Source: Sphaerodactylus townsendi (Eukaryota). Taken from it: a DNA stretch of 64,000 nt. Location: contig NC_059430.1 in the NCBI RefSeq assembly GCF_021028975.2, positions 11,036,001-11,100,000 of the forward strand, written 5' to 3'. Position numbers and translations under genes: made by a program. Under the pieces are notes generated by a model. That model had not been told where the DNA came from. It searched no databases and saw only the letters and a list, made by a program, of their open reading frames with translations. Shown one piece after another: positions 1 through 35,600 of the stretch (the first letter of the stretch is position 1; every line of letters starts with the position of its first letter).

Positions 1-382
1 TCGATCTTGTTGGGTTGCAGAACCAAACCACACAGTTATAGAGGTGCAGATGACAGACTCAATGATTCCTCTGTAGAATGCTCGAAGTGATGCTCGAAGG
101 TATGCTCGAAGGTAGTGATGCTCGAAGGTAGCAGGAGTAACGTTTGTATAAACAAAATGCAAATATTTTTTGTATAATAATAAAATCAGTATCCTGAAGC
201 AGAATGACAGGGTATTGACAGGAAGAAACAACGAAAATTATTAGTGCACGTTGCCAAATAAGAATTGCAGTTCTTTCTGCTAGTTTTGTGGGTCTAATTA
301 ATTTGGGATCTTAGCCTATTTGTAGAAGTGAAATCCTGTTCTGCAGTGTAATCCTGTTATGACACTGTTTGTTCTTTTGAAG

Positions 383-3300
383 CTTAATCTTGGAGACGAT
401 GTGGTGAAAATTAACATTGACTGGAGCAAGTTTCAGCACACTCCGCCACCCCAGCCCATGTTGCTCTTAAGTGTTCTGCAGCAGCATATTTCAGATTTGC
501 AGGTAAACGCTTTGTTCTACACTTTGAAACCCCAGACTTCAAACAAATCCTTCAGTGGCAGCTTGCGTGCTGCAAAATCTCATCTTCTGTGGTGTCATCT
601 CTGGATAAGGAATGGTGTGGTTGTATTGTGCATTTCAGTCTCTCTTGAATTTCGTAAAGCACTTCAACCTGTTATCTAAAGGGGTTATCAGAAGAGCTAC
701 GCGAATTGCATTGTAGGCTTCTGTGAGCGAGTAGAAGAAGAAGAGTTGGATTTATATCCCTCCTTTCTCTCCTGTAGGAGACTCAAAGGGGCTTACAAAC
801 TCCTTTCCCTTCCCCCCTCACAACAAACTCTCTGTGAGGTAGGTGGGGCTGAGAGAGCTCCAAAGAGCTGTGACTAGCCCAGGGTCACCCAGCTGGTGTG
901 TGATGGAGTATACAGGCTAATCTGAATTCCCCAGATAAGCCTCCATAGCTCAGGCGGCAGAGCGGGGAATCAAGTGCAGTCCTGTTCATTTCCACGTTTG
1001 CGTTATAAATGCAGTACATTTCCATGTGTCGTGGCTTATAATTAGGCAATAACATAGCAGGTGGGTGCCATGTTATGATAATGATTACATGCGTTGGGTG
1101 AGTTATGTGTTTTGCAGAGTGCTTTTGGTGGATCAAGAAATGGCATTATCCCACCAGGAAACATCTTGGTATGCCTCTGCAATTAACCAATTTGTAAAAA
1201 ATTAAGTAATTCATTAGACAGTCAATGTTTCATTTTGTCAAACAACCTATAGCTGTGTTGCATCATTTTCAGTGGACTCCTTAAAAGCTTTCTTACCGTC
1301 AAGCTACGCTACTTGCCCACAGTCTCTCTCTGTTTCTCCTTGGGGAGAAATGGGGATTCTTCTCTGGCGGAGGAGCTAAATCACTTTTTTGCCCGCTTTG
1401 AAACAGGTCTATCAGAAGGAGATGACACACAGCCACCAGGTGATTGCAGCTCACACCTCACTGTGGAGGAACATGAGGTGAGGTGCTCTTGAGGGCTGTG
1501 AATCCAAGGAAGGCTGCTGGACCGGATGGTATTCCCGGTCGGGTGTTAAAGGAATGCTTAACCAACTGGCTGGTGCAAGCTTTATTTCGATCTTTAATCG
1601 ATCTTTATCCCAGTCCACCATTCCATCTTGCTTGAAAGCTTCCAGCAGTGTGCCACTACCAAAGAGACTTCCTCCTGACAATCTTCAGGATTATAGACCA
1701 GTGGCACTCACCCCCATCATCATGAATTGTTTTGAAAATCTGGTCCATATAGGCATATTAGTTCTTTGCCTTCCAGATACATTTTGGATAAACATCAGTT
1801 CACATATCGGACCAATAGGATCTAATGGAGGACGCCATTGCCATTAGCCTCCACACAGCTTTGACGCATCTCGAACAGCAGGGGAATTATGTGCGAACGT
1901 TCTTTTGGCGGACTTTAGTTCCAGATTTAATACAATCTCACCACAAAGACTGGTGACAAAACTTGTGGATCTTTGGTTCCTCACATTCAATCTGTTTGTG
2001 GATTAGGGGACTTCCTTGTCTGATCGCTCCCAGAGGGTTAGACTGGGAAATCCAAGCTCTCAGTTCTTACTCTAAATATGGGAACGTTTACAGGGCTGTG
2101 TGTTGAGCCCCTTTTACTGTTCACCCTTTATACATAAGGATTGTAATTCTGTTCATCATAGTAACACCATTATCAAATTTTATTATGACATTAACGGTGG
2201 TGGGGCTCATCTCTGGAGGGGATGAGTCCTGCCTATCGGAATGAAGTGGACCGACTGCTCTCTCATGTGGTGCAGGGAAAACTAACCTGGTTCTGCACAC
2301 TAACAAGACAAAGGAGCCTTATAGTGGACTATAGGAAGGAATAGCTCAGGAAATTCAGCCCTTGACTATAAATGGAGATCAAGTGGAGCTGCGCTAGTTT
2401 TAAATTCCTGGGCTGCTATGGATTAAAGAGGATTTGACCTGGGGAGTACAGACTATCAAGGGTGAGAAAGCCCAGCAGCAGACTGTACTTTCTGAGACTT
2501 TTAAGGAAGCAACAACTAGATCGAAAACTTCTGGTGTCCTTTTATCAAGAAGCTATAGAGAGCGTCCTAACCTACTGCATCTGTGTATGGTTCTCCAGCT
2601 GCACAGTGGCTAACAGGAAGGCCCAAAGGGTGATCAATACTGCACAAAGGATTATCGGCTGCCCTCTCCCCTCCTTGGAAGAAATCTATAATGCCCGAAG
2701 TCTAAATAAAGCCCAAAATATTCTAAGGGACCCGTCTCATCCAGCACACTCTCTTTTTAAACTCAAGTACCATCTGGCAGACGATACAGGGCCCTCAGAA
2801 CTAGGACAAAGAGGCTTAGAGACAGCTTCTACTCTAGAGCTGTGGCTATGCTAAACTCCGCTGCTTCATATTGATGTATTTGGGGCTATGTAGGGATGGG
2901 TGGAGGATGATGATGTATGAGTCTGAAATTGTATGAGTCTGAAATTGTGTGCATCGAGGAATGCTGCTGTAAATTTCGTTGTGCGTGCACAATGACAATA
3001 AAATGCTTATGCTTATGCTTATGCTTATGCCTTAGCTATTTGTAGAAAAACTCCAGTCTTTGATTAAAGAAAAAAACGTCATGCTCACTGAGGATTCTAG
3101 TAAGGCAGAAGGCAAAACGGGGGAGGCTAATTCAAATGTAACAGAGAAAGATGCGCAGATGGAGGTGCAGGAAACAGCCTGTGCGTCTGGAAGCTCCAAA
3201 GAGGCACATGTGGATTTCAACCCAGAAGTGGTCCAGATAAAAGCTAGAAAAGCTGAGGTAAGTGACTCTGGGGCCGTTTTCCCTCCTTGTCCAGCCAATT

Positions 3301-6300
3301 CTCTCACTTTGAATAGCAATCATAAGAACATAAAAACAAGCCAGCTGGATCAGACCAGAGTCCATCTAGTCCAGCACTCTGCTACTCGCAGTGGCCCACC
3401 AGGTGCCTTTGGGAGCTCACGTGAAGGAGGTGAAAGCAATGGCCTGCTGCTGCTGCTGCTCCTGAGCACCTGGACTGTTAAGGCATTTGCAATCTCAGAT
3501 CAAAGAGGATCAAGATTGGTAGCCATAAATCGACTTCTCCTCCATAAATCTGTCCAAGCCCCTTTTAAAGCTATCCAGGTTAGTGGCCATCACCACCTCC
3601 TGTGGCGGTATATTCCAAACACCAATCACACGTTGCATGAAGAAGTGTTTCCTTTTATTAGTCCTAATTCTTCCCCCCAGCATTTTCAATGGATGCCCCC
3701 TGGTTCTAGTATTGTGAGAAAGAGAGAACAATTTCTCTCTGTCAACATTTTCTATCCCATGCATAATTTTATAGACTTCAATCGTGAACATCTCAATGCA
3801 CGTTGTTCCTGTTACTTGCAGATCGACAGACGCATATCAGCCTTCATCGAAAGGAAACAAGCTGAAATAAATGAAAATAACGTCAGAGAATTTTGCAACG
3901 TTATTGACTGTAACCAAGGTAACTACCCAATCAGGATTTGATTTTCGTAGGTCTGCAACTGTGGTTTTTCACCACTTACTTTAGACATCTCTTTAAAAAA
4001 CTTTTTTGTACAAAAGGGAAAGTAGGTTTTGTGGGTGAGTACAAAAGCTATTCGCTAGACATAATGCAGACAAACACCTTACTTTTCACATCCCCCATGA
4101 TCCTATACTAAGCCGATTCCCAGTGGTTCAAGCTAAACTTAAGTAATTTGCTTAAGCTAAATGCTGTATTTATTCTGATACAGTCCCATTGAGATTCATG
4201 GGGTTCAGCTGTAAAACTGATTTGTAAACCAAACTAGCCTCTTAAGTGAGGTAAGAATTGTATTGAAGAAGAGGTATTCAAAAGGCTTTCGTGGCCAGAA
4301 TCACTAGTGTGTGGTGGGTTTTCCAAGTTGTATGGCCATGTTCCAGTAGCATTTTCTCTTGATGTTTCACCTGCATCTGCAGCTGGCATACTCTAGAGAG
4401 ATGCCAGCCACAGATGTAGGCGATACGTCAGGAGAAAATGCTACTGGAACACGACCATACAACCTGGAAAACCCACAACACACTAGATATTGTATTGTCG
4501 AAGGCTTTCATGGCCGGGTTCAACTGGTTCTGGTGGGTTTTCCGGGCTTTATGGCCGTGGTCTAGTAGATCTTGTTCCTAACGTTTCGCCTGCATCTGTA
4601 GCTGGCATCTTCAGAGGTGTATCACAGAGAGAAGTCTGTTACACTGTGTCTGGACACAGCCCAGAAAACCCACCAGAACACTAGATATTGTTTGTTGAGA
4701 AGGCATCCTGAAAATAGAGGGGAGGAATTAACCTTCCTGTCACTTGTTTTGTAATGAATGTTCAAAATAAATCCAGTGTGGGGTTATATTTGTTTGTTTC
4801 CTACTGATCAAGAGCGTTTTCTCTGGATGACTCTTCAAATTAGCCCCAGAATACCCTTTCTTGGAGAAAATGTATATCAGACAACTAATGTTTGATTCAG
4901 ACATATTTTCATGATGCCCCTAGAAGATAAAGGTGCTGTATTCTGGGATGGAGTAACAAAAACCCTCTGTAAACATTAGCAGCGTTGGCTCTTCTGCACA
5001 TTGTCTGTTCCTGGATTTGATTTGTTAGCCTGTTCTGTTCAGTCTCTAGAATGCGTGTTTTAAAAGAAGTGCTAATTACCAATTCTTTGCCCAATTCTTA
5101 GAAAACAGCTGTGCTAGAACTGATGCCGTGTTCACACCTTATCCAGGATTTAAAAGTCATATAAAGGGTAAGCAGTACTGGGTTTCATTGCTGTCAACAT
5201 ATTAAGTGCGGGGTTTTGTTCTGTGAAATTATTTTGTAAACAAACGCTAAACCACACAATTAGTATGAATAAAAAGGCTCGTTGAGTTTTGCTAAAGACT
5301 TTCCTGGGCAGAATCAACTAGCTGTTGTGGCCGTGTTCTGGACTGCGTGGCCGTGTTCTGGTAGATTTTGCTCTTAACATTTCCGTCACATCTGTGGCTG
5401 GCAATTTCAGAGGCCCTGAACTCCACAGTGTGCCATGGAGAGAAACACATCTCACCTTGACTTGCCTGTTCGTGCGTAAAAATTAATCCTATCCTATCTA
5501 ATTTTAGTCTCTCGAGTTGTAAATACCTACGGCCCTCAAACGAGAAATGAAAACGCTCATGGGTCCAGTCATAAAGTAAACACCCTCCGCGATTGTGGGA
5601 ATCAAGCTATAGAAGAGCGGCTGCAAAATATTGAGGCTCATTTGAGGTTGCACACAGGTTAGTAGAGAAGCTTTGTAATTAGTTCGGATTTTTGGCGTTA
5701 TATAATTCCTGTAAAACATTTTCAGGTTATATTCCCAGATGTTGGTATTTGGTGTGTATCTATATATGGTTTTCCAATATCTCTTCCATTCATGTAACGA
5801 TATTATTTTCCCTCTGAGTTTTGCCCATTCATTCATGCAGTTTCTTATCAGGTCTTGCTCTACTCTTTGCTCCAGTAGTATTTTATATATTGTGGTGGTG
5901 GTGGTTGTTTTGATATTCATTGTTAAAACTCTGTCCATTCCATTGATATTTCCCATCTCTCAATGTCATGCATCATATTGTCCTTTATTTGTTGGTATGT
6001 TATCTCATCACAAGGTTCACCATTTATGTGTATTTCCTCTCTTGATTTCAGCTGTAGTCGTCCATTTAATTTCTTTTGTATGTCACAATAGGTTAGCCAA
6101 GTGTATCTCACTTTTCCATTGGATTGTTGTCTTGCTTCCATTCTTGATACCCATTGTGGTATCCTCACATAAAATATCTTCCTGTATTTTCTCCATATCC
6201 CATAAAGTGAGTTTCTGATATAGTGTATTATAATTTCCTTATTAACATCCACATTTCTGGTAAAATTTGGCCACAAATAATGGCTTTTCTGATGCTGCTT

Positions 6301-7531
6301 CTGATTTTTGAAGGTGGACCTGTCCCAAAAGACATTTATCAAAGAATTAAAAAGCTTGAAGATAAAATTCTTGAATTGGAAGGAATGTCACCTGAATATT
6401 TTCAGAGCGCTGTAAGTAACTCTTAAATAAGTTGAACTTATCTGTTGGATGTAGTCGACAAGAAATGATTGTATTTATAACTAATGAAATATAAAAAATA
6501 TGAACAATGATATAAACTCATGTATATAGATAAATGTATCTGAAATATTAGTTATAGCCAGAGTGCAACAGTAGTGGTAGTTCTATTATTGTTAGTTACT
6601 CATAACATATTTCTTAGCTTGATTTTATTGTTATCCTCCTTTGGAGGCTTTTAAAAGTAGAAGTTATTGAATAAAAGGAGACGAGAGAGGATTTCTTATA
6701 TTGTTATAGTGCTTCACTGTTTATGTTGCGACTGCATGTAAAGATCTACTTACATTTCAGTTTTGTTGATGTTTTGTAGAATTTGTCTGGCAAAAGAAGG
6801 AAAGGCCAACCGAATCAAGTAAGTGCATGAATCCTTGGAACTATACACTGGATATTCAAAGAAGCTCTTTCCATTCCCATTCTCTTCCTCTAACCTGTGA
6901 AGATTAAAAAAAAAATTCCCGCCTTAAGCTAGTTTAAATGTTTTGCCCCCACACACAAATCACACACCGGCCAGCCACAGATGCCGGCGAAACGTTAGGA
7001 ACAAGATCTGCCAGACCACGGCCACGCAGCCCGGAAAGCCCACCAACAACCAGTTGAGTCCGGCCGTGAAAGCCTTCGACAATACATCTCACACACACTG
7101 TTTGTCAGGATTCATAGAGTGTCTCTGAGAAAATGCTAATGCTAGCTCTCAAAATCATCTAATTCCACTTGAGATCTCTATCAAAAGACAGCTTTGGTAG
7201 TGTTTGAGTCTGCTTATGCTGTATTGGCTATGGCCATGCTGTATTGGCCATGGCCATGCTGGCAGGGGCTGATGGGAATTGTAGTCCATTAACATCTGGA
7301 GAGCTGCAGGTTGCAGACCCCTGATTTAGAACTTTCAGTGCAGAAATAATCCCACCACCTTCGTAGCCTATGAAAACTACTTGGAGCTCTTACGAATGTT
7401 GTTTGTGTTTCTTTTCTAAATTACAGAACTATTCTTTGGTTGAACTTGACGAGAAGATCAGAGCACTTAAACAAACATTGCTGCAAAAAACAAACGAGGA
7501 AAGGCCCAAGGTGGTTGATGAGCTTCTCTGA
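383..7531 (+). CDS. MBIP: MAP3K12-binding inhibitory protein 1, coding exons 2-9 (exon 1 lies upstream of the window)
   Basis: Exons 383-502, 3036-3257, 3822-3918, 5102-5167, 5508-5657, 6314-6411, 6780-6818, 7427-7531 (TGA). All have AG/GT ends and compatible phases. The spliced peptide includes LNLGDDVVKINIDW, VVQIKARKAEIDRRISAFIERKQAEINENNVREFCNVIDCNQENSCARTDA and GGPVPKDIYQRIKKLEDKILELEG, which match vertebrate MBIP. AATAAA at ~7642 and ~7882. Confidence 0.96.
735..973 (-). mobile_element. tRNA-derived SINE (Squam3-like)
   Basis: Family body and (CTT)n tail; head truncated. Confidence 0.85.
1342..3029 (+). mobile_element. Rex1/Babar non-LTR retrotransposon, 5'-truncated and frameshifted
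   Basis: Peptide remnants [46 protein letters not shown]; ends in AATAAA plus an (ATGCTT)n tail; flanked by CCTT/CCTT. Confidence 0.9.
3321..3784 (-). mobile_element. CR1 LINE 3' fragment in MBIP intron 3
   Basis: IEVYKIMHG...TRTRGHPLKM...[11 protein letters not shown]...LDSFKRGLDRFM; tail ttcttatg repeats. Confidence 0.9.
4282..4680. mobile_element. Two adjacent Penelope-derived palindromic elements in MBIP intron 4
   Basis: Both begin with gaaggctttc...ggcc; the second is flanked by the duplication ACACTAGATATTGT. Confidence 0.7.
5680..6265 (-). mobile_element. Degenerate L1/Tx1-like ORF2 fragment filling MBIP intron 6
   Basis: A-rich minus strand; peptide IYKILL...WKTIYRYT...NLKMFYRNYITP resembles the L1-clade ORF2 region before the Cys-rich domain. 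Confidence 0.6.
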
Positions 7532-8001
7532 GACCAACACGGTTTCACGTTTCCTTGTATGCTTAAGATTGAGCGGTATTTATCTAGGCACCCAACTGAA
7601 GTCTCATAACTTGTCTGACTTGATGCTAGATCCCTAGCAAAAATAAACTTCAGAATGAAGAGGCTCTGGGAATAACGTTGTGACTGTCTCATCCCTTCTG
7701 CCAAAAGCTTGGCAGAGCCGTTCGTCGCCAGTTGAAGGAACGCTTCAGTTTCTCTCTGTGAAAATATTACACGTTAAATGTCATGTTTGTGGATCTGAAG
7801 AGGGTCTTTGTCACTGTTCTGTCCAGAGGCTATGTATAATGTGATATGTTGCTTGTTCGTATAACTTTTATAACTTTGTGAAATAAATGGAAGTGAATGA
7901 TAGAACTTGGGGGAAATCACTGCAGGTATGAAGATAGATTGAATGGGACTGGGGTTACATAATCAGCGCCTCTTTGACTTGTGTCTCTCATGGCTTGGAA
8001 T

Positions 8002-19173: not shown

Positions 19174-20925
19174 CTATTTCTCAAACCGCCACACATGATT
19201 TTTATCTGCCGAATTACAGGTCCTCATTTGCACGTCCGGTTTTCCTTCCGGAGTGCGATAGGCGCTGAGGCATTTTCCCGAGCGAGGGTGATAAATCGTC
19301 CCGTCCTCTTTAAAATGCCATACGATGCTGTCTGGGATTGCAGCTCCGTCTTTGGGGCAGTTTCTCATGCCCACAAAGTCGTTCGGCTCTTGAACTTCAG
19401 CGCAGAGTTCCGTCACGGAGTTAAACCGTATTTCTTTGTTGGAAGTGTATTCGAAGAACTGGTTACCTCCTTGGCCGTGGCAGCCGAAGAGGGAAAGGTG
19501 GGCCCCGGTCGGATTGTGCTCAGGTGAGTTGTAGTCTAGACATTCCGAGGAAATGCCCATGCTGCGGATGGCGCCGTGCCAGGCCGGCCGATCCTCTGGC
19601 ACGTGCAGATGAGGAAATATCGTCTCCAAATACCAATCGAAGTTTTTGCACTTCAAGCGCTCCCTCAGGAGTTTCCTCTCGGAAAGGTCTCCGTAGTTTT
19701 CCTTCCGCGCCGGAGGATTTCTGTTGTAGAAATGTTCCTTATAGCCGTCCATCCACACCTCGGCAGCACGGGCGGTGTTTTGGAGGAAGTTTGGCCTGGC
19801 GTATGGCGCCCGCTTAGGAAACACATGGCCCACATGAGAACAAGGATGGATCTCTAAGATGCCTCCGCACTGCCATACCCGAAAAGAGAGTTCCAAATTC
19901 TCTCCTCCCCAGACATCCATGCCCATATCATACGTGCCCAAATACTCGAAATACTCTTTGCTCACTGCAAACAATCCCCCGGCCATTGTAGGGGACCTTA
20001 TTGGATCGATTCTGGATTTCCGCCTTTGCCGCTCATACTCCGGCACGGAGTGCCACTGAAACGTCAGCCGCCAGTCAAACCCCCCAATCATCGGCTCCCC
20101 AGACTGCATATAAAACTCGAATGTATTCCAATCAATGGTGTCAATAACCGGACAAATGATCACACTCTTGTTCTCAGAGATCCGTTGCAGAAGCGGCTCC
20201 AGCCACCCAGGAACGCATTCGCAGTGGCAGTCCAGAAAGGTGAGAACGTCCCCCGTGGCGTAGGTAGCCCCGACCAGGCGGGCCCGAACCAGCCCTTCCC
20301 GCTTGTTGGTTCTTATCAAACGGACCCTCTCCAGGTCGCTGATGTACCGCTCCAACTCCCCCTTGAGGTAGGCCTTGTCGCTCAAATCGTCCACCAGTAT
20401 GATTTCCTTCAGCAGGATGGCGGGCGAAGTCTCCAACACGCTGTGGATGGTCCGCAGCAGCGTGGACCAGGCCTCGTTGTAGAACGCGATGACGACCGAC
20501 GTGGTGGGCAGCTTGCGATAGTCGTAGGCCTTGGCCCTGCACTCTGGCATCCGGCTGTCTTGGATGTGGCGATGCAGAGAGATTTTGTCGCTCAGGTAGA
20601 TGTTGATGGCGTATTTCTCGATCAGCTCCTCTTCTAGCTTCTTCTCCTCGGGGCCCAGCTGCAGGTGGGCCGGCTTGCCCCACTCGCCTAAGCCGTAGGA
20701 ATCCGAGGAAGATTTCTCATAGAGGGGTCGGGCCAGCTCCTCGGGGTTTTCGGCCTGGCCTGAGAAGCGTCTCTCCCACCGCCGGCGGGTGACACCGCTC
20801 CCAGAGGACGTCTCCTGGAAGCCAGAGATGGACAGCTCCAGCATGAAAGCAGCAGCCGTCAAGAGCGCCAGGAAAAGGCATGCTCTGCCAAGCCAGGACC
20901 AGCGCCTGGCCAGCCGCACCCTCAT
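19174..20925 (-). CDS. GALNT4: Polypeptide N-acetylgalactosaminyltransferase 4 (intronless CDS, 583 aa)
   Basis: Uninterrupted ORF with an N-terminal TM segment, GT-A domain with DxH (FLDCHCE), WGGENLELS motif and C-terminal ricin-type lectin domain. An intronless CDS is typical of GALNT4. The ORF-track start at 20940 is TTG; the first ATG is at 20925 (MRVRLARRWSW). Confidence 0.95.
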   Translation of the reverse strand: MRVRLARRWSWLGRACLFLALLTAAAFMLELSISGFQETSSGSGVTRRRWERRFSGQAENPEELARPLYEKSSSDSYGLGEWGKPAHLQLGPEEKKLEEELIEKYAINIYLSDKISLHRHIQDSRMPECRAKAYDYRKLPTTSVVIAFYNEAWSTLLRTIHSVLETSPAILLKEIILVDDLSDKAYLKGELERYISDLERVRLIRTNKREGLVRARLVGATYATGDVLTFLDCHCECVPGWLEPLLQRISENKSVIICPVIDTIDWNTFEFYMQSGEPMIGGFDWRLTFQWHSVPEYERQRRKSRIDPIRSPTMAGGLFAVSKEYFEYLGTYDMGMDVWGGENLELSFRVWQCGGILEIHPCSHVGHVFPKRAPYARPNFLQNTARAAEVWMDGYKEHFYNRNPPARKENYGDLSERKLLRERLKCKNFDWYLETIFPHLHVPEDRPAWHGAIRSMGISSECLDYNSPEHNPTGAHLSLFGCHGQGGNQFFEYTSNKEIRFNSVTELCAEVQEPNDFVGMRNCPKDGAAIPDSIVWHFKEDGTIYHPRSGKCLSAYRTPEGKPDVQMRTCNSADKNHVWRFEK

Positions 20926-21456
20926 GTCCGGCCTAGCCAAGACAGCCCCAGATCTCGGCGGCTGAACTGTTGCTTCTCAGCAGAGCTGGCCAGAAGGAGG
21001 ATTCCTTGGGCTCTCCTCTCCGGGTGCAGAGGTGCAGCAGCCCCAAGGCAAAGCAGCGCACACAAATGCTCTTTTCCCTCCCCCTCTGCCTCCGTTCCTT
21101 CCTCCTCTCTTCTCTGGGACAAAGCCCTCCCCCACGGGCACTTCCTCGTCTGCAGCGGTTTGCTCAAAAAGTTGTCGCTTAAGGAAGGAGGCTGTAACTC
21201 CGGGCGGCCGGAGCATTTCCTTGCCTGCCGTCCTGCGTGGGCCCGTCCCACCCCTCCAGCTGCTTTGCACAAACAAACGGAGCCGGGCTGGCTTTCCCAC
21301 GCCTGGGGGAGCGGAGGCAACTCTCCACGCCGGAATCTTCAGTGAGGCTCAGCTGCAAAAAGGGAGACTTGGGTGCTACAGCACTGGGCGCTTGTGCTAA
21401 AGCTACTGGAGTGGAGCGGGCTTTAAAGAGGCAACAGCACTGCTAAGAAAACAGCG

Positions 21457-21931
21457 NNNNNNNNNNNNNNNNNNNNNNNNNNNNNNNNNNNNNNNNNNNN
21501 NNNNNNNNNNNNNNNNNNNNNNNNNNNNNNNNNNNNNNNNNNNNNNNNNNNNNNNNNNNNNNNNNNNNNNNNNNNNNNNNNNNNNNNNNNNNNNNNNNNN
21601 NNNNNNNNNNNNNNNNNNNNNNNNNNNNNNNNNNNNNNNNNNNNNNNNNNNNNNNNNNNNNNNNNNNNNNNNNNNNNNNNNNNNNNNNNNNNNNNNNNNN
21701 NNNNNNNNNNNNNNNNNNNNNNNNNNNNNNNNNNNNNNNNNNNNNNNNNNNNNNNNNNNNNNNNNNNNNNNNNNNNNNNNNNNNNNNNNNNNNNNNNNNN
21801 NNNNNNNNNNNNNNNNNNNNNNNNNNNNNNNNNNNNNNNNNNNNNNNNNNNNNNNNNNNNNNNNNNNNNNNNNNNNNNNNNNNNNNNNNNNNNNNNNNNN
21901 NNNNNNNNNNNNNNNNNNNNNNNNNNNNNNN
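21457..21931. other. Assembly gap
   Basis: N run. Confidence 1.
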
Positions 21932-32613: not shown

Positions 32614-35600
32614 ATGTCAGATACCGTGAGGGATAAAGCAGCGCGCTTGTTGAAGAAAAGGGGCAGCATCTCGTCTTTAGGGAGTCATGAAATCAAGGCA
32701 AAAGAATTTCTTGGGAAAACCAAAGAGTAAGTAGCCCTTTTGCTTCTCCTGACATGCTGTTTTCTAACTTGTCATCCTTCTAATTCTTCAGTTGCTTTGT
32801 TGGTCGCCACATCTCAAAAAGGATATCGAAGAGATAGAAAAAGTGCAGAGAAGGGCAACGAGGATGATTGAAGGATTGGAGCACCTTCCTTATGAGGAGA
32901 GGCTGCAGCGTTTGGGACTCTTTAGTTTGGAGAGGAGGCGTCTGAGGGGGGATAGGATTGAAGTCTATAAAATTATGCATGGGGTAGAAAATGTTGACAG
33001 AGAGAAATTTTTCTCTCTTTCTCACAATACCAGAATCAGGGGGCATTCATTGAAAATGCTGGGGGGAAGAATTAGGACTAATAAAAGGAAACACTTCTTC
33101 ACGCAACGTGTGATTGGTGTTTGGAATATGCTGCCACAGGAGGTGGTGATGGCCACTAACCTGGATAGCTTTAAAAAGGGCTTGGACAGATTTATGGAGG
33201 AGAAGTCGATCTATGGCTACCAGTCTTATTCCTCCTTGATCTCAGATTGCAAATGCCTTAGCAGACCAGGTGCTCAGGAGCAGCAGCAGCAGCAGGTCAT
33301 TGCTTTCACATCTTGCCCGTGAGCTCCCAAAGGCACCTGGTGGGCCACTGCGAGTAGCAGAGTGCTGGACTAGATGGACTCTGGTCTGATCCAGCAGGCT
33401 CATTCTTATGTTCTTATGTTCTTATGGACTGTTCTATTTAGCCACTTCAAAAACATTTTCTTTTACATCTGTCAAGGTTATATATTTTTAAATGGCAGCA
33501 GGTCACGATGAATCAGGGCCCACGTGGCGTTAACTCCCTGCCACAGTCTAGGGTTGTCAACAAGTCTGGAGACAAATATCCTGCTGCTTTAATACAAGCT
33601 TAATGTGTGGACATGTGCAGGAAACCGTTCTGGTGATTTGGAGATAATCCTATTAAGCCAATTATTAAAGGAACAGAACGTTTTTCTTCAGGCAGTACAC
33701 AACCTCACAGCCAACTTCTGCCTTCTGTGCAGTGGTGGGATCCAAAAATTTTAGTAACAGGTTCCCATGGTGGTGGGATTCAAACTGTGGCGTAGCGCCA
33801 ATGGGGCTGGGCGGGGCACGACGGGGGCATGGCCGGGCATTCCAGGGGCGGGGCATTCCTGGGCGGGGCTGTGGCAAGGACGCAGCCGCTGCGCCGGTCC
33901 TTGGACGGGAAACAAATGTACGCAGGCGCAGGCTGCCACGCACGCCGGTGCACCTCCTGCTAGACTGCTCCAAGTTCTGTGCGCTGCTGCTGAGAGGAGG
34001 GGCGTAACTAAGGCAAAAATCATGTGGCAAAATCACCAATTAGTAAACCCCCTCTCAGCACACACAAATAATTAGTAACCTACTCTTGGGAACCTGTGAG
34101 AACCTGCTGGATCCCACCTCTGCTTCTGTGGCCTATGATGCTGGGCTCGTGTAAGAACTGTGTGCTTGGCTCTGAACTTTAAAGGATTGGAGGGTGGGAA
34201 GGTTAAAATGCAGCCTCATGGTTTTCTGTTGTTGTTTTTTGGGTCAGTTGTGACCCCATTCTCTTGTGCAGACATGGTTCCTTGACCTACACGAAAAGTT
34301 GAAGACAAACTCAGAGTAAGGGACTTACATGTGCTTTGCAATGTGTGCCTAACTCTATTTTCTCCTAGGAAGACACAGAAATTCAGCCCTTGACTATAAA
34401 TGGAGATCAAGTAGAGCGGGTGGCTAGTTTTAAATTTCTGGCCGTCATGATTAAAGAGGACTTGACCTGGGGCGTACAGACTGCCGCGGTGGTTAAGAAG
34501 GCCCAGCAAAGACTGTATTATCTGAGACTTCTACGGAAACAACAACTGAATGGAGAACTCCAGGTGTCCTTTTCCCACTGTACTATAGAGAGTGTCTTAA
34601 CCTACTGCATCTGTGTGTGGTTCTCCAGTTGCACAGTGGCAGATAGGAAGGCGCTCCAAAGGGTGATCACTACTGCACAGAGGCTTATCGGCTGCCCTCT
34701 CCCCTCCTTGGAAGAACTCGATAATTCCCGAAGCCTAAAGAAAGCCCAAAATATTCTGAGAGGCCCGTCTCATCCAGCACACTCTCTTTTTGAACCGTTA
34801 CCATCCGGCAGACGATACAGGTCTATCAAAACCAGGACAAAGAGGCTGAGAGACAGCTTCTACTCTAGAGCTGTGGCTACGCTGAACTCCACGGCTTTGT
34901 GTTGATGTGTTTGGGGCTGTGTAGGGATGGGTGGAGGAAGGGGAAAGTGAGGGTGGGGCATGAGTCTGGAATTGTGTGCATCGAGGAATGCTGCTGTAAA
35001 TTTCGTTGTGCGTGCACAATGACAATAAAATGCTTATGCTTATGATAGTCTCTTTGAAATAGTGTAGTACATAAAACCATTATAGGCCTTTCATGGGTTT
35101 TTTTGTGTGGTGCTTTGCATCTGATTAGTTTCATGTTGTGTCCGACAAATAGCAATTAACCTATTTATTGTTTGGGATTGTCTTCAGCTCCATGAGTACA
35201 GTGTCTTACATGGATGAGCCGGGACACCATGACGACATTCTTCGTCCTCCTGTTCAGATGGAGAACACATACCAGTTAGGTAAGGATCTCTTACTCTTTG
35301 GCTCATTCCGCACGGGCAGAATAATCCACTTTCAAACTGCTTTCAGTGCTCTTTGAAGCTGTGCGGAATGGCAAAATCCACTTGCAAACAGTTGTGAAAG
35401 TGGGGTGCTGTGTGGTTTCCGGGCTGTATGGCTGTGTTCTAGCAGCATTCTCTCCTGATGAAGATGCCAGCCAGATGGCTACAACGTCAGGAGAGAATGC
35501 TGCTAGAACACGGCCATACAGCCCGGAAACTACACAGCACCCCAGCAATTCCGGCAATTCCCCCCCCCCCCGCTTTTTCCATTTTTATGGAATTAGGGTC

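Follow-up and report, generated by a model that had tools for sequence, protein, structure and literature searches.

A Rex1-like LINE inserted within the exon 3 splice acceptor of MBIP in Sphaerodactylus townsendi, with a repeat tail predicted to act as a substitute splice signal

Introduction

Splice acceptors disturbed by retroelements have been described in dogs. In canine merle, a SINEC_Cf element lies in the acceptor at the intron 10/exon 11 boundary of PMEL, and an effect on splicing is shown in the parts of the reports drawn on here (PMC6091007, PMC7349775). In canine FAM161A (PRA3), the part of the source used here describes a SINE of ~238 nt near an acceptor that leads to exon skipping and a frameshift (PMC3976383). 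Rex1/Babar elements are frequently truncated at the 5′ end and carry a conserved 3′ untranslated region (UTR) followed by an oligonucleotide repeat tail, according to the sections of PMC6274825 available to us. Squamate genomes contain Rex LINEs, and in those sampled AATAG loci are enriched at the 3′ ends of these elements, as stated in the accessible part of PMC6050309; the portion of PMC5381603 at hand contained nothing on Rex1 in lizards.

A literature search that covered subscription journals thinly and excluded supplements returned no paper on a transposable-element insertion affecting MBIP splicing, nor one on a LINE in an acceptor that matches the case described here. We analyzed a 64,000-nucleotide stretch of the Sphaerodactylus townsendi genome (the window) that contains most of MBIP, which we take to encode an ATAC subunit. 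A sequence-only reading of the window had proposed that a LINE interrupts the exon 3 acceptor of this gene, with four possible outcomes: co-option of the element's tail as a splice signal, skipping of exon 3, premature polyadenylation, or a polymorphic hypomorphic allele.

Results

MBIP exon 3 and the split acceptor

Exons 2 to 9 of MBIP model P0002 were located intact by tblastn at 371-7528 of the window, exon 1 lying outside it. The exons that concern the insertion are as follows, the acceptor and donor of exon 2 having been read directly.

383-502, plus strand: MBIP exon 2, placed by tblastn with P0002, donor at 503
3036-3257, plus strand: MBIP exon 3, 222 nt, 74 codons, residues 87-160 of P0002
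3822-3918, plus strand: MBIP exon 4, the in-frame target of a skip from exon 2

Exons 2 and 3 join in phase 0, and the exon 3 donor (GAG/GTAAGT) agrees with the consensus at 8/9 positions. Translated exon 3 shows 100% identity with the named S. townsendi MBIP models P0002 (344 aa, XP_048358306.1, the only RefSeq model returned) and P0001, both of which join exon 2 to position 3036; these models are predictions that may rest on homology or on RNA from a non-carrier. MBIP intron 3 contains, at 3321-3783, a minus-strand 3′ fragment of a high-copy LINE (frame 3510-3836; high contig depth), and a near-identical plus-strand fragment lies at 32830-33420 (frame 32768-33322) in an intron of a gene described below; we assume both to be CR1-like.

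The acceptor of exon 3 is split by an insertion: the element lies in sense orientation between copies of a CCTT duplication, and the AG and the exon are intact.

1322-1341, plus strand: orphan polypyrimidine tract of the exon 3 acceptor, 18/20 pyrimidines, host sequence to at least 1337 (X1 and X5 contigs, see below)
1338-1341, plus strand: CCTT, 5′ copy of a 4-nt target-site duplication, from the sequence
1342-3029, plus strand, sense to MBIP: 5′-truncated Rex1-like non-LTR retrotransposon, from reverse transcriptase (RT)/PF09004 similarity and a second copy that is 85% identical
3030-3035, plus strand: 3′ copy of CCTT (3030-3033) and the original acceptor AG (3034-3035)

Every coordinate given earlier for an element between the exon 3 tract and its AG was verified by direct reading. 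The reconstruction of the original site also held, as excision of the element and one CCTT (1342-3033) joins the tract to the AG and regains a strong acceptor, with 85% pyrimidines over the 20 nt before −3 and a longest pyrimidine run of 9. A 4-nt duplication is weak by itself (by arithmetic, ~1 in 256 per placement), and it is backed by the X1 and X5 contigs, which cease to fit the window at 1337, the base preceding the first CCTT. Such a short duplication agrees with the ~5-bp offset reported for ZfL2-1 in the part of PMC4760211 consulted.

The first codon of exon 3 (3036-3038) encodes Leu at a position occupied almost invariably by Pro among 46 amniote MBIPs. This may be a real change or a border error, as the codon lies 3 nt from the 3′ end of the insertion and is covered by no contig among those listed.

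Identity and structure of the element

The frame at 2438-2851 matched PF09004 (E=9.8e-10) as well as 133 proteins, and most of the 120 listed carry RT plus PF09004. Across the element, identity to RT plus PF09004 proteins, many from fish where named, was 62-64% over ~490 aa. Because the alignment begins only at residue 493 of the 992-aa protein P0132, the element is a 5′-truncated sense LINE; Rex1/Babar elements often lose their endonuclease region in this way. Summed contig depth increased ~20- to 120-fold from its 5′ to its 3′ end, depending on the run. The parts of the element and its second copy are as follows.

1349-2862, plus strand: remaining RT plus PF09004 frame, 62-64% identical to P0132 and P0172 across 19-21 frameshifts, with 0 stops
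2976-2995, plus strand: 8-bp stem-loop at the element 3′ end, identical in the second copy, from a fold of 2960-3045 whose overall z of −0.53 is not significant
2997-3002, plus strand: AATAAA at the element 3′ end, in both copies
3003-3029, plus strand: (ATGCTT)n tail, within a repeat stretch at 3003-3030 of 4.7 copies with 100% match
34367-35044, plus strand: second, shorter copy of the same LINE family, 85% identical to the MBIP copy

The last 73 nt before the end of the tail, with (ATGCTT)n following the 3′ UTR, are identical in both copies, so the 3′ letters fit the LINE family. The MBIP copy has another AATAAA at 2705. Its 3′ UTR also contains a perfect 16-nt tandem duplication (2914-2948) where the second copy is purine-rich; this may be a subfamily variant or an assembly error. 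The element 3′ end had 0 matches in metagenome contigs.

The proposed LINE identity was supported by the similarity to RT plus PF09004 (formerly DUF1891), a combination that we take to be of the Rex1/Babar type. No Pfam RT domain was matched by three short frameshifted pieces of the element, and no named Rex1 protein was among the database matches to its RT frame. We call the element Rex1-like, a name that draws on the RT, the 5′ truncation, the 3′ UTR and the tail features rather than on a tree.

The element interior is noisy. The MBIP copy showed 21 frameshifts relative to P0132 and 19 relative to P0172, mostly extra letters, and 0 stops in 1.5 kb, with the proviso that the aligner can exchange stops for paired frameshifts. 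The second copy had 0 frameshifts in 0.52 kb, and only 4/21 of the MBIP-copy frameshifts fall in the stretch common to both. They are unevenly distributed, with 0 in 1342-1480, 15 in 1750-2350, 1 after 2650 and none in 2767-2862. At 10 listed places, most of them beside short runs, contigs of the family are without 1-2 letters that the window has. As a young allele is not expected to decay by frameshifts without stops, the middle of the element is probably unpolished, error-laden long-read sequence with corrected ends. An old insertion, which the many frameshifts might suggest, was rejected given the lack of stops and the clean ends. The noisy interior calls for less trust in interior cryptic sites, with little effect on trust in the junctions.

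Filled and empty sites in sequenced DNA

Five DNA runs contain the stretch, and contigs of four (X1, X2, X4 and X5) were compared; X3 is from the same sample as X1 and was omitted. X1 carries the same organism label as X2 and comes from a different sample; X2 may be the window's source sample; X5 is from a relative. A contig of X2 (record 10) fitted 944-1353 with 0 differences, crossing the 5′ junction and extending 12 letters past CCTT, short of the 31 letters of our junction-bridging rule. Contigs of X1 (record 3) and X5 (record 26) fitted to 1337 and continued with 30 and 44 nonfitting letters, respectively. Position 1337 is where an empty-site joint to 3030 would be placed; the joint 1337 to 3030 was not among the 15 joints listed, with 1831 more beyond those. 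From the contigs that leave the window sequence after 1337 we infer an empty allele in X1 and X5. The 44 letters of X5 are likewise compatible with an acceptor shorter by 3 nt than the one reconstructed, and the exactly 30 letters (k−1) of X1 would fit two alleles that meet at 3030, i.e., a heterozygote.

None of the 32 contig pieces listed covers the 3′ junction, a lack of cover that we did not take as evidence, and no piece of X4 lies at the junction among those listed. In all four runs the exon 3 contigs begin at 3044-3048, their first 30 letters ending in or just past an A run at 3070-3076. At position 517, X1 has G, as do both relatives, and X2 has the window letter, a pattern that fits two haplotypes. 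These data support the polymorphic allele proposed earlier: the insert is probably genuine and polymorphic, and likely a recent insertion that only some individuals carry.

A putative acceptor made by the LINE tail

We described splice-site strength by simple measures (pyrimidine and T fractions, pyrimidine run, branch motif and consensus matches). The acceptor now formed by the tail and the retained AG has a pyrimidine fraction of 0.70 and a T fraction of 0.50, within the ranges seen at the gene's seven other acceptors in the window (0.65-0.75 and 0.40-0.60). It ends in TAG and is preceded by 75 AG-free nt, the last upstream AG being at 2957-2958. Branch-like A's in yTnAy motifs occur in the tail at 3009 (−27), 3015 (−21) and 3021 (−15), the tail motif being without the purine of the nnyTrAy consensus. 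Most branch points are situated 18-37 nt upstream, and splicing uses the first AG that follows them, as reported in the part of PMC8531310 consulted. The features of a U2-type 3′ splice site are present in the tail-made acceptor, namely, YAG, a pyrimidine-rich tract and a branch motif at 18-37 nt with no AG between. The longest pyrimidine run is only 3, the lowest of the gene's eight acceptors (others, 4-10; original, 9). By these measures the tail-made acceptor is predicted to be weaker than the original (pyrimidine fraction 0.85, run 9).

Among the four outcomes proposed earlier, tail co-option appears the most likely from these features. In the model that we favor, target-primed reverse transcription would have begun at a nick next to CCTTA, a sequence that agrees with GCTTA of the tail at 4/5 letters, and would have left the 4-nt duplication, as expected from known LINE biology. 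The filled junction in X2 and the nonfilled ones in X1 and X5 would mean that only some individuals carry the insertion. On the filled allele, U2 is predicted to use A3009 or A3015, and U2AF to bind the T-rich tail and the retained AG. The strong exon 3 donor 222 nt downstream would aid exon definition, so that mostly normal inclusion at lower efficiency is expected. In a minority of transcripts, exon 3 would be skipped or the orphan tract would bring in a cryptic exon with a stop, and the allele would therefore be a mild hypomorph able to segregate.

Predicted consequences of skipping and of cryptic splicing

Exon 3 was missing in 0/128 MBIP homologues and exon 2 in 6/128; these homologues are top scorers, including the best 120 of 696 matches, a sample biased against exon-lacking forms. 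No S. townsendi MBIP protein without exon 3 was found among the best 120 of 696 matches. Isoforms without exon 2, with exon 1 joined to the exon 3 acceptor, occur in lacertid lizards and Elgaria (P0003, P0009-P0011, P0013 and P0060); variable splicing around this acceptor already exists in squamates.

Conservation is high at both ends of exon 3 (median identity, 0.67 and 0.64) and low in its middle (0.28), and 8 columns within the exon are invariant in a 46-protein alignment. An AlphaFold model of low confidence (mean pLDDT 52.7, pTM 0.18), used for helix positions only, has helices at 70-107 and 149-191 that take in the two ends of the exon. No solved MBIP structure was found by sequence search, and P0002 was assigned no Pfam family. 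Because exon 3 contributes 8 invariant residues and portions of both predicted helices, an in-frame skip would probably damage the protein. Neutral skipping was rejected on the basis of the homologue survey, the invariant residues and the predicted helices.

A fifth outcome had been overlooked, in which the orphan tract would feed a cryptic exon that carries a stop. The candidate sites are as follows.

1321-1322, plus strand: candidate cryptic acceptor CAG immediately 5′ of the orphan tract, predicted from sequence
1346-1347, plus strand: candidate cryptic acceptor GAG, its AG being the first one past the orphan tract, predicted from sequence inside the exact X2 match
1440-1479, plus strand: the two best donor-like sites of the element, CAG/GTGATT at 1440 (8/9) and GAG/GTGAGG at 1478 (7/9)

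All four combinations of these acceptors and donors meet a stop at codon 18 or 19.

The second copy and its surroundings

The second LINE copy (34347-35050 with its flanks) has an open frame of 178 aa with PF09004. Its host intron belongs to a Tctex-1-family gene (PF03645; 32614-36645, plus strand) that we presume to be DYNLT5/TCTEX1D1-like, and a coding acceptor of that gene follows ~145 nt downstream. Its 5′ flank is acceptor-like (CTAAC, a pyrimidine tract and TAG), its tail is followed by ATAG, and no clear target-site duplication was seen. The possibility that it sits in a real acceptor of its host gene was rejected, as the acceptor precedes 35189/35190, ~145 nt past the tail. In both copies TAG occurs within 6 nt after the tail; the share of window positions that lie no more than 6 nt upstream of a pyrimidine-rich AG is 0.44%. 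The 5′ flanks of the two copies have TTTCTCCT in common; 8 letters shared with the flank of the first copy occur in 0.28% of 20-nt windows, in a post hoc comparison with n=2.

At 34250-34368 in the same Tctex-1 gene intron, an exon-like stretch of 44 nt (acceptor 34271, GTAAG donor 34317) is followed by 50 intron-like nt, with an early stop in the expected phase. A frame of 600 codons without introns occupies 19174-20976 on the minus strand; it has Glycos_transf_2 and ricin-type lectin domains and is a GalNAc-transferase that we assume to be GALNT4-like. An N gap at 21457-21931 parts the Tctex-1-family gene from MBIP and the GALNT4-like gene. As we understand it, human MBIP, GALNT4 and DYNLT5 are on different chromosomes; a rearrangement or a scaffold join between these genes is possible.

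Discussion

The explanation that we prefer, whose chances we judge to be evenly balanced, is that a recent, polymorphic Rex1-like insertion split the exon 3 acceptor and that its tail would supply a branch point and a weaker tract, exon 3 still being mostly spliced in, less efficiently. It is favored by the intactness of exons 2-9, by the join of exon 2 to 3036 in both S. townsendi models and by the contrast between 0/128 homologues without exon 3 and 6 without exon 2. Against it stand the pyrimidine run of 3, the lowest in the gene, and the chance that the gene models were forced by homology or drawn from non-carrier RNA; moreover, a SINE 15-16 nt upstream of the FAM161A exon 5 acceptor in dogs caused skipping, according to the part of the report used here (PMC3976383). 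A strong hypomorph is possible, with clearly lower probability. Here the tail would be too weak, and most transcripts would either lose exon 3 (in frame, −74 aa) or include the cryptic exon fed by the orphan tract; the stop in that exon is predicted to lead to nonsense-mediated decay, and the allele would persist mainly in heterozygotes. The short run of the tail-made tract speaks for this severe outcome, as do the orphan site, which retains a pyrimidine fraction of 0.80 and a run of 9, the donor matches of 8/9 and 7/9 with four candidate exons that all have early stops, and the 30 letters of X1 past 1337, which would fit a heterozygote. Merle likewise shows cryptic acceptor use after insertion into an acceptor, in the portions of the reports cited (PMC6091007, PMC7349775). 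However, no yTnAy motif lies 15-45 nt upstream of the AG at 1346, and a G at −3 after a G run, as at this AG, makes a disfavored acceptor. Most family contigs have T, not C, at 1437, so that the window's context for the 1440 donor may be wrong. The X2 contig runs unbranched through 1341 at a depth of 30.4 (neighbors, 33.4 and 35.2), which would fit a living homozygous carrier, though contig cleanup can hide a second allele.

Three further readings are improbable, to differing degrees. Transcripts of the filled allele might end at the AATAAA at 2997-3002 and yield a truncated MBIP RNA, which we regard as very improbable. The sense AATAAA is followed by a T-rich stretch, and there is the second one at 2705, but AATAAA occurs 7 times in window positions 1-7600, once inside exon 4 and otherwise in places that include introns that are read through. 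The signal also shares positions with the predicted branch region, and a strong donor follows it; a strong downstream donor tends to suppress intronic cleavage (U1 telescripting). It is improbable that faulty assembly or gap filling produced the insert or its 3′ junction and that the real gene has an ordinary acceptor. An artefact would account for the 19-21 frameshifts, mostly extra letters with 0 stops in 1.5 kb, for the 1-2 window letters missing from family contigs at 10 listed places, for the lack of cover of 3030-3043 among the contig pieces listed and for the Leu in place of a near-invariant Pro at 3036, which could be a border error. Against this, the X2 short-read contig is exact over 944-1353, through the 5′ junction; the first 140 nt and 2767-2862 are without frameshifts and the final 73 nt are the same as in the second copy, so that the ends look polished and the middle unpolished; and CCTT at both ends with a complete tail is unexpected from a misjoin. 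Similarly doubtful is the broader idea that this LINE family carries a portable 3′ splice signal, prefers acceptor-like, pyrimidine-rich targets, and so would land in acceptors and repair them. This idea rests on the occurrence of TTTCTCCT in both 5′ flanks, where the junction of the second copy is ill defined; if it were true, many gecko acceptors would be LINE tails, with tail length tuning splicing.

If our preferred explanation, rescue by the tail, is true, MBIP offers a natural case of a sense-strand LINE tail that takes the place of both the pyrimidine tract and the branch point at a constitutive coding exon, in contrast to the dog cases, whose outcome is skipping or cryptic splicing. 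One species seems to harbor both the filled and the empty allele, making a direct comparison of alleles possible. The haplotype behind the reference MBIP gene model may be a minor one that bears the insertion and includes many erroneous letters. Being a single allele with a predicted effect only, the case leaves general views unchanged.

Among known systems, the element resembles Rex1/Babar and squamate Rex elements in its RT frame, 5′ truncation, conserved 3′ UTR and repeat tail. It differs in the ATGCTT tail of the MBIP copy, which has no AG and is 50% pyrimidine per unit; a tail of the AATAG type would not be expected to rescue an acceptor, because it carries AGs. As in FAM161A, a retroelement within ~16 nt of an acceptor parts it from its upstream signals, whereas in the dog gene skipping was demonstrated and the accessible part of that report mentions no rescue by a tail. 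The likeness to merle goes further: a retroelement within an acceptor, a target-site duplication, a displaced original branch point and a tail that acts, or in MBIP is predicted to act, as pyrimidine tract. In merle, original and cryptic acceptors compete, the allele is polymorphic and tail length could tune the outcome; for MBIP the competition and tuning are predicted, and segregation is probable from X2 versus X1. Merle, however, involves an antisense SINE with an upstream oligo(dT) that feeds a cryptic AG and a 15-bp duplication; in MBIP, a 1.7-kb sense LINE with a 4-nt duplication has a hexamer tail adjoining the original AG, with rescue predicted. As the antisense oligo(dT) feature is absent, the MBIP insertion is not of the merle type. 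The kind of event is already known from merle, and the twist is the sense-strand tail.
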